64,000 nucleotides of DNA, from contig JAVZNE010000001.1 of NCBI GenBank assembly GCA_038882975.1, forward strand, positions 321,997 to 385,996, read 5' to 3'. The stretch's first letter is position 1. Every line of letters starts with the position of its first letter. A program made the position numbers and the translations under genes. Below the pieces are notes generated by a model. That model had not been told where the DNA came from. It saw only the letters and a program-made list of their open reading frames with translations, and did no database searches. Origin of the DNA: Candidatus Bathyarchaeia archaeon. GTDB taxonomy: Archaea > Thermoproteota > Bathyarchaeia > Bathyarchaeales > Bathycorpusculaceae. Of this stretch, positions 849-5,889 are shown piece by piece.

Positions 849-1292
849 GTGGATGTTACGAGTATTGTAGGGGTTAAGCTGGACATTAAAGGTGGGGCTG
901 GGACAGTTAATTTTGATGTTAAGGCAAGGCTTGAAGAGAGGGAAAGGCGAAGTCAAATGGTTGTTGTTGGCTTTAACCTCCAACTGACAACGAAACCTAG
1001 CATTGTTAAATTTGAGGTTGAAGGAACTGCAACGCTTACAGGGAAGGATACGGAGATAAACAAGATGCTGGAGGTTGACCCTGAAACAAAGGTGCCCTAT
1101 GTTTTTCAGAAGGTTTATCAACACACTTTTACAACCATGTATTTGCTCTCAACTATTCTGAATACGCCTCCGCCACCAATAGACCTCCTCCTTTTCAGAG
1201 GGGAAGAAGCGTCAGCTGGGGGAGTTGCCATTGAGCCTGAAGCAGCCGTAAAAGTTGAGGGAGAGGCTGAAGAAGCGGAAAAAGAGGGCTGA
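849..1292 (+). CDS. Hypothetical protein, possible SecB-like fold, acidic C-terminal tail
   Basis: Alternating beta-strand pattern, then helix and PPPP motif; true start may lie near 810-812. Confidence 0.55.
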   Translation: MDVTSIVGVKLDIKGGAGTVNFDVKARLEERERRSQMVVVGFNLQLTTKPSIVKFEVEGTATLTGKDTEINKMLEVDPETKVPYVFQKVYQHTFTTMYLLSTILNTPPPPIDLLLFRGEEASAGGVAIEPEAAVKVEGEAEEAEKEG

Positions 1293-1303
1293 CAAAATAA
1301 CAC

Positions 1304-1399
1304 TTTTATAGTTGCTTTGTTGTTATGCTGTTTGTTGGCGGGTGAGTGGGACCTCCCACCCGTTCCGCCATATAAACCCCGGTGTAGGGAGGTGAAAAA
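1304..1399 (+). promoter_or_regulatory. TATA box plus structured 5' leader (candidate riboswitch) of the QueT-family gene
   Basis: TTTTATA 1304-1310; GGCGG 1337-1341 / CCGCC 1365-1369 stem; ACCTCCC 1351-1357 complementary to SD GGGAGGT 1387-1393. Confidence 0.55.
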
Positions 1400-1903
1400 T
1401 TGAAATTTGATAGTAAAGATTTGGCTTTGACGGTGGTTTTTGCGGCTTTGTATGCTGCTGGAGTGATTTTTCTGGCGCCCATAAGCTTTGGGATATATCA
1501 GGTGAGGGTTGCTGATGCGCTTTTGCCCTTGTCGGTGGTTTTCGGTATGCCAGTTGCCCTCGGAACAGGGGTAGGATGTTTGGTTGCCAACGTTTACGGT
1601 GGACTGGGCATAATTGATGTTGTTGGCGGCAGTGTTGCAAATTTTGTTGCATGCGTTTTGGCTTGGCTTATCGGTGGAGAGAGTATTGTACGTAGACTCG
1701 TGGCGTGTTTCGTGGAGACCGTCACAATAACGATTATTGTTGGAGGATACTTGGCGCTTATATTCAATGTTCCAGTGGAGGTTGGATTGTTTGGCATTTT
1801 CATAGGCTCTATTGTAGCGATTAATATCCTCGGATTTGCGATTCTAGAGGCTTTAAATCGGAGCCGCATAGGCAAAAGATATGCGAGAAGCGGTGGAAAC
1901 TAA
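1400..1903 (+). CDS. queT: QueT-family ECF transporter S component (queuosine/archaeosine precursor or vitamin uptake)
   Basis: Hydrophobic 167 aa; APISFGIYQVRVADAL motif; strong SD before TTG. Confidence 0.8.
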   Translation: MKFDSKDLALTVVFAALYAAGVIFLAPISFGIYQVRVADALLPLSVVFGMPVALGTGVGCLVANVYGGLGIIDVVGGSVANFVACVLAWLIGGESIVRRLVACFVETVTITIIVGGYLALIFNVPVEVGLFGIFIGSIVAINILGFAILEALNRSRIGKRYARSGGN

Positions 1904-1908
1904 AAAAT

Positions 1909-4593
1909 TCACATGAAACGTTCCAGCTTTGTCAACCCTATTATTTCGTCGAAGTCTAAGCCTAATGCGTCTAAAACTTGGTCGAAGGTTGAGTGCAGAT
2001 AAGCCACATATTTGTCCACATCTATCTCATTTTTCGTTGCTAGTTCCACTGGTTTTACGTGAGGCTCGTTCACCACCTTTACAAAGCTTATTAGGTCTCC
2101 GGCTTTGAGTTCCATTCCACTTTCTTTTAGGATTCTTGCGGCTTTCACGTGTTGTGGCGTTGTCTTTGTGTAGCGTTCTGGTTCTTCGCCTAAAACCACG
2201 TTGAAGGCTAGTTCGTTTAGGCTTTCCCATTCACGTCTTTTTAGGCGTATGTAACAGTCGCGGATTGTTTGGATAATATCTTTTTTGGCTGCTTCGAAGT
2301 CTGCTGGCGTTTTCACTGTGGCTAGGCGTTCTTTCATTTTGTCAAAAGCTTTCTTGATGAATATGGGGATGTGGCGTTTCTTGCCCGTCAAACCCTTAAC
2401 GTCTACACTTCCGTCTTCCAGTACACCCAGATAGTTCTTTTTGCGGGAGCTGAAGACTGCGTAGCGGTAAACCTTGTCCACGTCTAAGCCCATTTTAAGC
2501 TCGCGTTCAGTCCATTCTTCTAGTTCGTGTATTTGCTCTTTTGATGGGTTTTTTAGGAAGACGCTGTCTGTGTCGCCGTAAAGCACTTGTATGCCCAGCT
2601 CATCAGCCCTCTTAATTATTTGGGTTATGGCGTGCCTCCCTATGGCTGCTGTGGCTTCAGCCACTGGGGGGCAGTAGAGGTCGAAGGTTTCCGCTCCAAA
2701 AACGCCGTAGCTGGCGTTTAAAATAACTTTTAATGCGCCTTGAATAATATTGTACCAGCTTCTAACTTCTGGTGGCAGAGCCTTATCCTTAGATTTTGGC
2801 TTGTACCATTGGACCCGCAAGTCCCTAAGGGAGCCTATTAGGAGGCTTTCTAGGGTGCGTTTTTTGCGGCAGACCCAGTGGGGCGTGTCCGGCACAAGGT
2901 TTGTTTGGCACTCTGGATGCCCACACAAGATGGACTGGTAGCCCAGGTTCCAAACTTTTATTATTGATGGGTATAGGCTTGGGAAGTCCATTACTGCGAC
3001 GTTGAAGTGGACGCCTGGCACTGGTTCGACTACTATGGCGCCCTTGTATTTTTTACCCTTTATTATGGCTTTTGTGGCTGTCTTGCCCTTTAGGGCTAGT
3101 ATGTCTTCAGCGTTTGGGATGAGCATTTTTTTTCTGCGGTGTTCGCGGTGCATGAAATTTCTTATCCAGCGGGATACGCCTTGTCGGCTTACATCCTCCA
3201 TTGGCATGCTGCTTATCCTAGCCAAAACGAGAATCAACTTTAAGACCAGCTCGTCTTCGAAGCTTGTGAGTTTGTAGGTGATTTCGGCGTCTCTGAAGCA
3301 GTATTTTGCAAGTTCCGTGTATGTTAGTTCGCCTATTCCCTTTTCAAGCGTTATCTTGTCCAAGCCCACAAGTGCCCTTCCAACGTCGCCTAAAGTTACG
3401 TCTCGGTAGCGGTTGTTGAAGGCGTAAATTTGTATGGAGCGGTTGAAGAAGAACTTGTAAAGGTCTATGTGAACACCATACTTTAGGAGGCAAACCCGTT
3501 TGCCAATCTCTATTGGGATTTCATCCCTCTTAAAGCCGTGGTTTTCTGCTCTATGCGCTAAATATCGTAGGTCGAAGTCGTCGCCATTGAAGGTTATCAC
3601 AAATGGGTAGTTCCACAAAACCTCAAAAACAGCCCTTATCAGCTTCTCTTCAGAATCGAAATATTCTATTTGAACGTCTGCTGGTAAACGTTCCGAGCCC
3701 TCGCGAACCCCTTCCCTTTTTAGGAGGAGAACCCGCTTTTGCCCATCTGAACTGTATAGGGAGACACAGACTATCGGGTAGGCTGCCTCGCGGGGGTCTG
3801 GCATCCGGGTTGGTATGGGCGAGTAAACCTCAATGTCCATGGCGACATAACGGAACTTTGGAGCCGGATACTCCAGAAGCCTAGCCCACTGCTCGATGTA
3901 TTGACGTTCTTCAGCGGCAGCCCCCTTAAAAGTGCTAACTATTTGCTGAATCGTTTTCTCCGCCTCTTCTAGGCGTTTTGACACAAGATTGCCATTCTTA
4001 ACCTCGTAAACCATACCGGGCAAAAGTCCACGATCATAAATGTAGGATTGGTAGTACTTTATCTTGGACTCCCAAACTTTGATGGATTCTACAGAAACTG
4101 GAACATCTGCAACCTTTGGAAAGTCCTCTGGAATAATATCCCTTATGCAGCCTTTTGGGCGTCCCCCAATAGCCAGCGGGTCCTTAGCCACAATCTTTGT
4201 CACTTTGACCGGCTTATCCAAAAGGGGGTCAAACTTCTCCTCGATTTCAAAGTGATCGAAGCCCGGATGCTTCATTAATCGGTCGATTTTTTCAAGCTCG
4301 AATGGCGAAAGGTTTGTGTAGCAGTAGGGCTTATGACCAGTGTTATCATACCAGAAGTAGATTCGCCCAGAAACCGGCTCGTAAAGCTTTAGGAGGGCTT
4401 TTCCAGCTTTGCCATCATAAGTGGCTGAAACAAAATATGAGGGGGGAAGGTTTTCAGGCGCTGTTGGCGGAAAACCCCTCTGTTTTCGCTCTTTTTCTAT
4501 GGATTCTGTGAAGGGTAGGGCTTCCGCTTTTGGTTCTTGGGGCTTAGCCACCGGTATTGAAAACTCGTCTAATCGCCTTTGAGCCATAACCAC
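1909..4593 (-). CDS. polB1: Family B DNA polymerase, PolB1 type
   Basis: DIEVY and FNGDDFD exonuclease motifs, DFPSLYPS, KVILNASYG, YGDTDS; no intein. Confidence 0.93.
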   Translation of the reverse strand: MVMAQRRLDEFSIPVAKPQEPKAEALPFTESIEKERKQRGFPPTAPENLPPSYFVSATYDGKAGKALLKLYEPVSGRIYFWYDNTGHKPYCYTNLSPFELEKIDRLMKHPGFDHFEIEEKFDPLLDKPVKVTKIVAKDPLAIGGRPKGCIRDIIPEDFPKVADVPVSVESIKVWESKIKYYQSYIYDRGLLPGMVYEVKNGNLVSKRLEEAEKTIQQIVSTFKGAAAEERQYIEQWARLLEYPAPKFRYVAMDIEVYSPIPTRMPDPREAAYPIVCVSLYSSDGQKRVLLLKREGVREGSERLPADVQIEYFDSEEKLIRAVFEVLWNYPFVITFNGDDFDLRYLAHRAENHGFKRDEIPIEIGKRVCLLKYGVHIDLYKFFFNRSIQIYAFNNRYRDVTLGDVGRALVGLDKITLEKGIGELTYTELAKYCFRDAEITYKLTSFEDELVLKLILVLARISSMPMEDVSRQGVSRWIRNFMHREHRRKKMLIPNAEDILALKGKTATKAIIKGKKYKGAIVVEPVPGVHFNVAVMDFPSLYPSIIKVWNLGYQSILCGHPECQTNLVPDTPHWVCRKKRTLESLLIGSLRDLRVQWYKPKSKDKALPPEVRSWYNIIQGALKVILNASYGVFGAETFDLYCPPVAEATAAIGRHAITQIIKRADELGIQVLYGDTDSVFLKNPSKEQIHELEEWTERELKMGLDVDKVYRYAVFSSRKKNYLGVLEDGSVDVKGLTGKKRHIPIFIKKAFDKMKERLATVKTPADFEAAKKDIIQTIRDCYIRLKRREWESLNELAFNVVLGEEPERYTKTTPQHVKAARILKESGMELKAGDLISFVKVVNEPHVKPVELATKNEIDVDKYVAYLHSTFDQVLDALGLDFDEIIGLTKLERFM

Positions 4594-4647: not shown

Positions 4648-5889
4648 TCAGCAGTGTATATTGCGCTCTTCGCTTTCGATTTTTGTAATGAATTGCTTCA
4701 ACGTCATCATACCTATGTGCCCAAAACCATGTCTTCTGACAGAAACCTTTTTGGCTTTTAATTCACGTTTACCGAGGATTATCATGTAAGGGATTTTCTG
4801 AACTTCAGCTTCCCTAATCTTATAATTGATTGTTGACTGACTTTCTTCAATTTCCGACCTAACTCCATTTGACTCAAGTTTTTCATGGATTTTCTTAGCG
4901 TATGACAAGTATTTGTCTCCCATGGGTAATATTCGCACTTGCACTGGTGAAAGCCAAAGCGGAAGATTGCCCTTAAAATGTTCGAGAAGTAGGGCGAAGA
5001 ATCTTTCTATTGTCCCGAGGAGGGCTCTATGAATCATGATTGCCCCGTGTTTCTTTCCATCTGGACCCACATATGTTACATTGAAGCGTTTTGGAAGGTT
5101 AAAGTCAAACTGAATTGTTGAGCATTGCCACTTTCTTCCAGAGGCATCCTCTATGTAAAGGTCGATTTTCGGACCGTAGAAAACGGCTTCTCCGGGCATC
5201 TCTCTGTACCTCAGTCCTTTCCTTTTTAGGGCTTTTGCTAATGCTTTTTGAGCTTGGCTCCAGTCTTCATCAGAACCCATGTATTTTTCAGGCTGGCTTT
5301 CATCTCTGGTTGATAGAACCACCTCGTATTTGTGGAAGCCGAAACGTTTGAGGATGTGCTCTGTAAAGTCTAAGAGTTTTAGGATTTCATCTTCCATTTG
5401 TTCTGGTGTGCAGAAAATGTGGGCGTCGTCCTGTGTTAACCCTCTAACCCGCAATAGCCCATGCAGTGTGCCGGATCGTTCATATCTATAGACGGTACCC
5501 CATTCCGCGTATTTTATTGGCAGTTCTTTGTAGCTTCTGGGTTTTGCCTTATATATTTGTATGGGGAAGGGGCAATTCATGGGTTTTACAACATAGAGTT
5601 CGCCTTCCTTCTCGAAGGTATACATGTTTTCCATGTAGTAATCCAGGTGCCCAGAAATTTTCCAAAGCTCTCCTCTTGCAATATGAGGGGTACAGACAAG
5701 CTCATAGCCGCCTTTAATGTGTTCTTCTTCCCAAAAATTTCTGATTATCCTTCGAACGGTTGTGCCTTTTGGGTGCCAAAGCACTAGTCCTACGCCAACA
5801 TCTTCATTTATGGAGAACATATCCAAACGTTGACCAAGAACTCTGTGGTCTGTGTCCGACAGGTCCTTTATTTGCACCTTGTCTTTCAA
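4648..5889 (-). CDS. thrS: Threonyl-tRNA synthetase, bacterial-type catalytic plus anticodon domains, no editing domain
   Basis: KPMNCP, YRYERSG, QDDAHIF, FYGPKID, IHRALLG motifs; 413 aa. Confidence 0.9.
   Translation of the reverse strand: MKDKVQIKDLSDTDHRVLGQRLDMFSINEDVGVGLVLWHPKGTTVRRIIRNFWEEEHIKGGYELVCTPHIARGELWKISGHLDYYMENMYTFEKEGELYVVKPMNCPFPIQIYKAKPRSYKELPIKYAEWGTVYRYERSGTLHGLLRVRGLTQDDAHIFCTPEQMEDEILKLLDFTEHILKRFGFHKYEVVLSTRDESQPEKYMGSDEDWSQAQKALAKALKRKGLRYREMPGEAVFYGPKIDLYIEDASGRKWQCSTIQFDFNLPKRFNVTYVGPDGKKHGAIMIHRALLGTIERFFALLLEHFKGNLPLWLSPVQVRILPMGDKYLSYAKKIHEKLESNGVRSEIEESQSTINYKIREAEVQKIPYMIILGKRELKAKKVSVRRHGFGHIGMMTLKQFITKIESEERNIHC

Follow-up and report, generated by a model that had tools for sequence, protein, structure and literature searches.

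A conserved leader RNA with a predicted pseudoknot upstream of archaeal queT genes: a candidate preQ0-responsive riboswitch

The queT gene of a Candidatus Bathyarchaeia archaeon (assembly GCA_038882975.1) is preceded by a leader, positions 1333-1404 of the window (the whole stretch of 64,000 nucleotides that was analysed), in which we find what is almost certainly a real, conserved and structured cis-regulatory RNA. The structured element is conserved, lies within the 5' leader in the sense orientation of the gene, and keeps a constant spacing to the start codon. We consider it probable, with appreciable doubt remaining, that the element is a preQ0-responsive translational riboswitch, for which ligand binding, the pocket, the transcript start and the direction of switching are all inferred.

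The queT leader and its promoter

The ORF at 1400-1903 passes the Pfam gathering score for QueT (PF06177; 92 bits against a cut-off of 33.7, E = 5.4e-26). Direct reading of the window sequence places TTTTATA at 1304-1310, ATATAAA at 1370-1376 and CCCC at 1377-1380. The initial annotation had drawn a candidate riboswitch here with an outer stem GGCGG (1337-1341)/CCGCC (1365-1369) and an inner stem GTGGG (1346-1350)/CCCAC (1355-1359) around a loop ACCT (1351-1354), and all of these letters lie where it put them. The Shine-Dalgarno (SD) sequence GGGAGGT at 1387-1393 is, as it had further claimed, the exact complement of ACCTCCC at 1351-1357. The features of the leader are listed below.

1304-1311, + strand: TATA-like promoter box TTTTATAG; predicted transcript start ~1333-1336, without start-site data
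1337-1342, + strand: 5' strand of stem P1, GGCGGG; partner 1364-1369; 99.1% of cells paired in alignment A2
1343-1345, + strand: junction UGA; possible P1b with CCG 1360-1362 (U.G, G-C, A opposite C)
1346-1350, + strand: 5' strand of stem P2, GUGGG; partner 1355-1359; covers part of the anti-SD
1351-1357, + strand: anti-SD ACCUCCC, in the P2 loop and P2 3' strand; complementary to 1387-1393
1355-1359, + strand: 3' strand of P2, CCCAC; 1355-1357 common to P2 and the pseudoknot
1360-1363, + strand: conserved CCG and bulged U, directly 5' of the P1 3' strand
1364-1369, + strand: 3' strand of P1, UCCGCC; partner 1337-1342
1370-1382, + strand: A-rich linker, then the invariant AAA-N-CCC-GG tract, AUAUAAACCCCGG; may form loop 3 and a strand of the ligand pocket, inferred
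1387-1394, + strand: Shine-Dalgarno GGGAGGUG, the 3' strand of the pseudoknot
1400-1903, + strand: queT, 167 aa, TTG start at 1400; the regulated gene, Pfam QueT

Folding of this single sequence gives -29.6 kcal/mol (z = -2.52), and 2 of 200 shuffled sequences fold equally well. The fold alone is thus only modestly above chance, so that one sequence could not decide the matter; conservation did.

None of the surrounding genes that were identified is tied to the queT pathway: a glycosyltransferase family 4 protein (2-688, + strand; Pfam) and, on the minus strand, family-B DNA polymerase-like (1909-4593) and threonyl-tRNA synthetase-like (4648-5889) genes, the latter two judged by eye from their translations. 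The ORF directly upstream (849-1292, 147 aa, with an acidic C-terminus) has no Pfam family; among members of the genus its 3' end is conserved on the left side of the leader.

Among the 145 copies whose upstream sequence is long enough, 125 place the end of their best TATA-like 8-mer 22-30 nt upstream of the first base of P1, and the box of the window ends at 1311, 25 nt before G1337. From the usual spacing between box and start in archaea, transcription is predicted to begin 1-5 nt 5' of P1; no start-site data are available. The initial annotation had named TATAAA at 1371, acting as the promoter, as an outcome that would refute its proposal. The fixed distance is kept by the upstream box and not by this hexamer, and in many copies the internal ATATAAA is replaced by the non-TATA-like UAGAAA, AACAAA or GACAUAAA. 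A strong SD is retained, 5-8 nt ahead of the start codon. A pairing of the U-rich stretch 5' of P1 with the A-rich tail, present in the minimum free energy fold, was set aside as it occurs in close relatives only; judging by the promoter spacing, the U-rich stretch is probably outside the transcript. Five contigs of a metatranscriptome (X12), from relatives, cover 1335-1398, and one of them reaches 214 letters further upstream. Since the run is stored as contigs and its library may contain DNA, it permits no conclusion on transcription or its start.

Conservation and structure of the element

QueT homologues were found in 51 of the 61 related genomes. The motif is present in 29 of the 30 queT loci returned from these relatives, directly 5' of the matched queT in 27 of the 30, and at the head of an operon in two loci (L016 and L017), the first in the order motif-QueT-QueC-QueT. 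The leader remains nearly letter-identical even where QueT proteins are only 33-45% identical. The sole locus of the 30 without the motif (L010) contains a shortened look-alike ~100-190 nt 5' of its queT, in which GGCGGG, a 5-nt loop, CUCCGCC and UUUACCCC are followed by a longer G-rich leader. The look-alike has no anti-SD loop and is not scored by the covariance model described next; it may represent either a variant or a copy in decay.

A covariance model, R1, was built from an alignment (A1) of 29 copies of the leader 1333-1404. The genome of the window gives one strong R1 match, at 1333-1404 itself (97.5 bits), and a 12-bit match with E = 0.8 that was taken as noise. Genomes sampled over the class Bathyarchaeia contain R1 matches in 94 of 151 cases, or 73 of 95 among those of high quality. 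Across the phylum, 28 of 151 sampled genomes have matches, some of them in lineages outside the class (families f44, 9/15; f56, 3/3; f60, 2/2), and so do 15 of 151 sampled Asgard genomes, the phylum of the record titled Promethearchaeota. A scan with an IUPAC pattern over one genome per species matched at least 120 stretches, of which 80 were listed, and R1 confirmed 69 of these 80. The other 11 coincide precisely with the 11 bacterial records, so that no bacterial pattern match (0/11) is confirmed by R1 among the matches listed; ~13 chance matches were estimated. The confirmed records listed are mostly from Bathyarchaeia or Bathyarchaeota and also from Methanomethylicota, Promethearchaeota, Hodarchaeota and 'Nitrososphaerota'. 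Among the carriers is the record titled Candidatus Bathyarchaeum tardum (L120). The element is archaeal within the searches made, and the conservation asked for in the initial annotation extends across classes and phyla (Bathyarchaeia, other Thermoproteota and Asgard archaea). We also note that in a hot-spring DNA run (X1) the summed contig depth reaches ~3770 over 1342-1373, compared with 150-640 in the flanks; many co-occurring relatives share this stretch nearly unchanged.

Pair counts were taken from alignments that had been fitted to the structures, and the sequences are related. In A2, an alignment of 92 rows of which five are reverse-strand or noise and three are doubtful, the closing pair of P1 is GC in 62 rows, AU in 16, GU in 7, UA in 2 and otherwise in 4; the fifth pair is G-C in 84 and C-G in 7, with none broken. 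Counted over 155 unique copies, 102 of the closing pairs are GC, 25 AU, 9 GU, 5 UA, 4 CG and 3 UG, and the position is unpaired in 7. In a further set, A3, the retrieval pattern fixed P1, hence the invariance of P1 is imposed there.

The inner stem P2 is 90.2% paired in A2, where 10 rows have G-C or C-G in place of U-A. Minimal forms (L226, L147 and L091) lack P2, as do two loci of genus g17 (L070 and L088); the loop of the minimal Asgard form L226 is just CCCAU, closed by UGG/CCG. The inner GTGGG/CCCAC hairpin of the initial annotation is therefore real yet accessory, since minimal Asgard forms do without it. The core described there was also incomplete, lacking the U bulge, the UGA/CCG junction and the invariant AAA-N-CCC tract. 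At the junction the first P1b pair is U.G in 86 rows and the second is GC in 73, GU in 6 and AU in 1, and at the third position no more than 30 of 91 rows have a standard pair. P1b is possible and not proven, as its bases are mostly invariant.

The conserved unpaired bases are U1343, C1360-G1362, U1363, the AAA-N-CCC tract at 1374-1380 and G1381-G1382. In the 155 unique copies 1360-1362 is CCG in 149 and CUG in 6, UU follows in 146, and the tract reads AAACCCC in 104, AAAACCC in 27 and AAAUCCC in 23; the CCG and UU counts are partly fixed by the retrieval pattern and the regular expression. No covarying partner of the C-tract was found in the aligned copies. Inspection by eye of GGG 1348-1350, G1340-1342, CCG 1360-1362 and the SD as partners found none that is consistent over all lineages; GGG is missing in L070 and L088, and a G-run is missing from the SD of L177. 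An alternative pairing of CGGGUG 1339-1344 with CACCCG 1357-1362 was rejected because it is broken by seven GGCGCG variants, in which a C-G swap preserves P1.

All copies compared can pair the hairpin loop with the SD segment, and this pairing amounts, at the level of sequence comparison, to an H-type pseudoknot. A second model for this loop:SD helix only (R2, 89 copies aligned) has 97.6% of cells paired, and all six pairs are changed on both sides (77 cells). Not one shuffle in 500 attains the observed level, and controls with a slid register pair at no more than 70.5%. Kinship among the sequences inflates the shuffle statistics, and much of the signal is a coordinated change of register between CCUCCC/GGGAGG and CCUCC/GGAGG. 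There are, in addition, independent matched pairs, namely CCUUCC/GGAAGG, CACCUC/GAGGUG, CCCUCU/AGAGGG and GCCCCC/GGGGGC, as well as UCCGA/UCGGA, ACAUCUC/GAGAUGU and CUCGCA/UGCGAG. Without any alignment, the duplex of each loop with its own tail has -13.08 kcal/mol compared with -11.72 +/- 0.15 for swapped partners (0/5000). For 12 cluster representatives the values are -11.53 and -8.54 +/- 0.66 (0/5000), and shuffled tails give -8.09 +/- 0.68. Both the outer stem and the anti-SD:SD pairing thus co-vary, as the covariation test proposed in the initial annotation would have it. An extension of the pseudoknot by ACC 1358-1360 with GGU 1381-1383 is possible, yet these positions do not co-vary and it was not adopted.

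P2 and the pseudoknot both need C1355-C1357 and are consequently mutually exclusive, as the two folds envisaged in that annotation would be. The predicted energies are -9.1 for P1 alone and -19.4 for P1 with P2, so that P2 contributes about -10 kcal/mol; the loop:tail duplex has about -15 kcal/mol before any pseudoknot penalty, a value comparable to P2. If pseudoknots are excluded, the nested fold already has the SD paired to ACCCC 1376-1380, at 97-99% for G1388 and G1389. With this pairing of the C-tract, an ON state with a free SD is not evident thermodynamically at 37 C.

Regulated genes and the inferred ligand

QueT was identified by Pfam in 131 of the 139 downstream ORFs of at least 100 aa. 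In a separate test all 10 of the Asgard ORFs examined were QueT as well. The other assignments among the 139 are Radical_SAM with Fer4_12 (n = 3), QueC (n = 1) and TFIIB (n = 1); the last case was not counted, as it follows a 20.6-bit R1 match without the motif core. QueE models score best on the three radical-SAM proteins (90-122 bits) and remain under their curated cut-offs, hence these proteins are termed QueE-like; the QueC protein passes TIGR00364 with 195 bits against 150. Stop-to-stop reading of 10 loci for ORFs with unusual starts yielded six more QueT proteins and one partial QueT. No family could be assigned to the downstream ORF at three loci (L143, L055 and L044), and a fourth (L156) is likewise unassigned and was not scanned. 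The element precedes only genes that make or import 7-deazaguanines, apart from these three or four ORFs without a family, and the tie to QueT, QueE and QueC genes alone agrees with the gene association on which the initial annotation relied.

Several loci show further variation in the gene itself. Two of the unassigned loci carry longer, membrane-protein-like ORFs after the motif (L143:5727-6572, 282 aa; L055:1555-2262, 236 aa) that match no Pfam or NCBIfam family; the ORF of L143 contains a QueT-like segment behind an N-terminal extension. Within the genus of the window, at the same locus and behind the same upstream gene, L023 has a leader that differs by about one base (as also in L022 and L025), and its queT (1501-2064, compared with 1400-1903 of the window) is a divergent homologue of 188 aa with 39% identity, whose first 12 residues are nearly identical. 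This pattern, known from the sequences alone, suggests gene replacement or recombination just 3' of the leader. In DNA run X1 a contig of depth 307 joins 1431 to 1911 and thereby omits 479 bases, most of queT (window 1432-1910), and 1410 is joined to 1911 in a second contig (depth 11). Such contigs may stem from a related population that has the leader and lacks the transporter gene.

The start codon lies a few nt 3' of the SD in nearly all copies. The regulated queT genes mostly start with TTG or GTG rather than ATG, and several apparently with other codons; such weak start codons would make translation lean more on access to the SD.

The genome of the window (94.7% complete) encodes an archaeosine-type tRNA-guanine transglycosylase (arcTGT; 282.7 bits, 555-aa frame, C3:34862-35830). 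The search of the same genome for biosynthetic enzymes gave no match for QueD, only N-terminal PP-loop fragments for QueC (24-29 bits), and only generic radical-SAM matches for QueE (at most 27 bits). The organism seems, as far as its gene content can tell, to depend on an imported precursor, salvaged preQ0, and such dependence would make QueT the point to regulate. Of the 151 class genomes, one has QueF above its cut-off, compared with 94 that have the motif. The presence of arcTGT and the near absence of QueF imply that these cells use preQ0 and not preQ1. Archaeosine is made from preQ0, and a route of preQ0 salvage in archaea has been proposed (PMC5372724). The same paper states that bacterial queT genes are sometimes located 3' of preQ1 riboswitches and that the substrates of QueT lack experimental verification. 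As the common end product of QueE, QueC and QueT here, preQ0 is the most likely ligand, an inference without binding data.

Mechanism, rival readings and relation to known riboswitches

In the proposed mechanism, 1333-1404 would be the 5' leader of the queT mRNA and a cis-acting metabolite-sensing RNA, whose transcription would start from the promoter box at 1304-1311 a few bases 5' of P1. The hairpin closed by P1 would present the anti-SD 1351-1357 in its loop for pairing with the SD at 1387-1393, forming the H-type pseudoknot. The linker 1370-1382 is envisaged to run along P1 and to build the binding pocket together with the U bulge and the UGA/CCG junction. When preQ0 is plentiful, its binding would lock the pseudoknot and bury the SD, and translation of the QueT importer would stop (OFF); QueE and QueC in other genomes would be shut off by preQ0 in the same way. 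When preQ0 is scarce, P2 (1346-1350/1355-1359) may capture the anti-SD and leave the SD free, so that P2 would serve as an optional anti-anti-SD that sets the threshold. The absence of P2 from several lineages speaks against this role. The direction of switching is inferred from the logic of the genes, because the nested fold already pairs the SD. The paradigm followed is the burial of the SD by bacterial preQ1 riboswitches, as described in PMC10018353.

Other readings of the same data have to be weighed. The RNA structure could be the same with a protein or other trans-acting factor as the sensor, for instance an RNA-binding regulator or arcTGT, which stabilises the pseudoknot. The conserved unpaired bases might just as well serve for contact with a protein, there are no binding data, and TGT is reported to be able to act on an mRNA in vitro (PMC1950534). 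The near invariance of the motif over Bathyarchaeia, other Thermoproteota and Asgard archaea is, however, typical of RNAs that bind an unchanging metabolite, and the loci looked at, unsystematically, have no conserved neighbouring regulator, their flanks varying by lineage; we hold a protein sensor to be unlikely, though still a live possibility. Quite unlikely, in our estimate, is a riboswitch for another ligand, such as preQ1, queuine, 7-carboxy-7-deazaguanine, guanine or another purine-like base. Bacterial QueT has been linked to preQ1, its substrates being unverified by experiment (PMC5372724), and the regulated QueE and QueC act upstream of preQ0. Against this stand the rarity of the preQ1-making QueF in the class (above cut-off in just one of the 151 genomes), the fact that QueE, QueC and QueT have preQ0 as their common end product in these cells, and the use of preQ0 by archaeal tRNA for archaeosine (PMC5372724).

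The SD is paired in every predicted fold, the DNA holding the element comes from hot-spring metagenomes, and an internal anti-SD resembles RNA thermometers in principle; a leader that needs no ligand and merely masks the SD, setting a fixed or temperature-dependent level of translation, would account for these points. Such a thermometer needs pairing alone, whereas the bulged U, the CCG and the AAA-N-CCC tract are kept across phyla, the element stands only before 7-deazaguanine genes, and the motif also occurs in records from bog, termite gut and marine sources (by title), which renders this explanation very unlikely. A reading at the DNA level, in which GGCGG...CCGCC is the operator palindrome of a transcription factor and TATAAA at 1371 the promoter of a leaderless mRNA, draws on the inverted repeat adjoining a TATA-like hexamer (1371-1376) that lies ~24 nt before TTG 1400. 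It is scarcely credible, given that the P1 closing pair is GU in 9 and UG in 3 of the 155 copies and that loop and SD segment change together, a covariation without meaning for DNA binding; pairs of the G.U type, like the pairing to the SD, belong to the RNA level. Moreover, the A-rich segment is often not TATA-like, the spacing of the upstream box is fixed in 125 of 145 copies, and the strong SD kept 5-8 nt from the start would not be needed by leaderless mRNAs. The preferred reading remains the preQ0-responsive riboswitch. The initial annotation had put forward a translational switch on a new motif that might respond to preQ0, and each computational check it asked for turned out favourable to it.

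Comparison with Rfam 15 returned no family match for window 1100-1600 at E <= 10 or for 8 divergent copies at E <= 5. Matches dismissed as chance, all far under the gathering scores, were Pseudomon-1 (17.8 bits) and GHRLOS (9.7 bits) in the window and sn2903 and the FdoG thermometer (15-19 bits) in the divergent copies. The initial annotation had called for a check against the known preQ1 classes, and none of the preQ1-I, -II and -III models matches.

At the level of architecture only, the element resembles preQ1-I (RF00522). It is predicted to fold into a small H-type pseudoknot whose P1 is short (5 bp), G/C-rich and followed by an A-rich segment; the SD-bearing 3' tail returns to pair with the hairpin loop, queT and other que genes lie downstream, and the inferred ligand of the element belongs to the same 7-deazaguanine family. 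Parts of the preQ1-I architecture compared here are described in PMC10018353 and PMC10043782. Unlike preQ1-I, the element is archaeal, in hosts that probably do not make preQ1, and its U bulge, CCG and C-tract are without counterpart, the conserved loop bases being different. The preQ1-I class is characterised by a loop of ~11 nt and a consensus of pocket nucleotides, in contrast to which the loop of the element spans 7-20 nt, mostly 14 or 16, with 5-7 nt of anti-SD and often an extra hairpin. The preQ1-II (RF01054) and preQ1-III (RF02680) classes are bacterial, differ from the element in size and helices, and gave no model match. They share with it the burial of the SD in a pseudoknot helix, that is, translational control, as described in PMC10018353. 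A loop that departs from the preQ1-I consensus and the absence of a matching Rfam model sustain the earlier suggestion of a new motif.

SAM-II, SAM-V and fluoride riboswitches are other H-type pseudoknots that sequester the SD. A ligand-stabilised pseudoknot with the SD in the second helix and loop 3 along stem 1 is proposed for the element as well; its sequence, ligand and gene set are unrelated to theirs, and no Rfam match connects them. TPP and fluoride riboswitches occur in archaea, both being shared with bacteria and found mainly there. The element would resemble them as a metabolite-sensing leader of an archaeal mRNA, and differs in that it was found in archaea only in the searches made. 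No archaeal preQ0 or preQ1 riboswitch and no description of this motif was encountered in the literature searched, a scope that leaves out most subscription journals and supplements; PMC9723716 names riboswitches in its reference list alone.

The element is apparently a new riboswitch class, seemingly restricted to archaea. We lean, at slightly better than even, toward the stronger statement that Archaea have in it their first exclusive riboswitch class. This class, 'preQ0-I', would sense preQ0, have no sequence relationship to the three preQ1 classes of bacteria, be distributed across Bathyarchaeia, other Thermoproteota and Asgard archaea, and control translation through an SD-burying pseudoknot. 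Riboswitches are plentiful in bacteria and few are known in archaea, and we know of no archaea-specific class. If the statement is true, it would represent a fourth independent RNA solution to the recognition of 7-deazaguanines, useful for studies of RNA-ligand interaction, and a compact, possibly thermostable, regulatory part for archaeal genetics. Metabolite-sensing mRNAs would have been independently invented, or retained, in the archaeal lineage nearest to eukaryotes, and a widespread archaeal class would offer a first approach to the small-molecule control of genes in uncultured Bathyarchaeia and Asgard archaea. It would likewise be evidence, on genetic grounds, for preQ0 as the substrate that archaeal QueT imports and for salvage, in place of synthesis, of the archaeosine precursor in many of these organisms.
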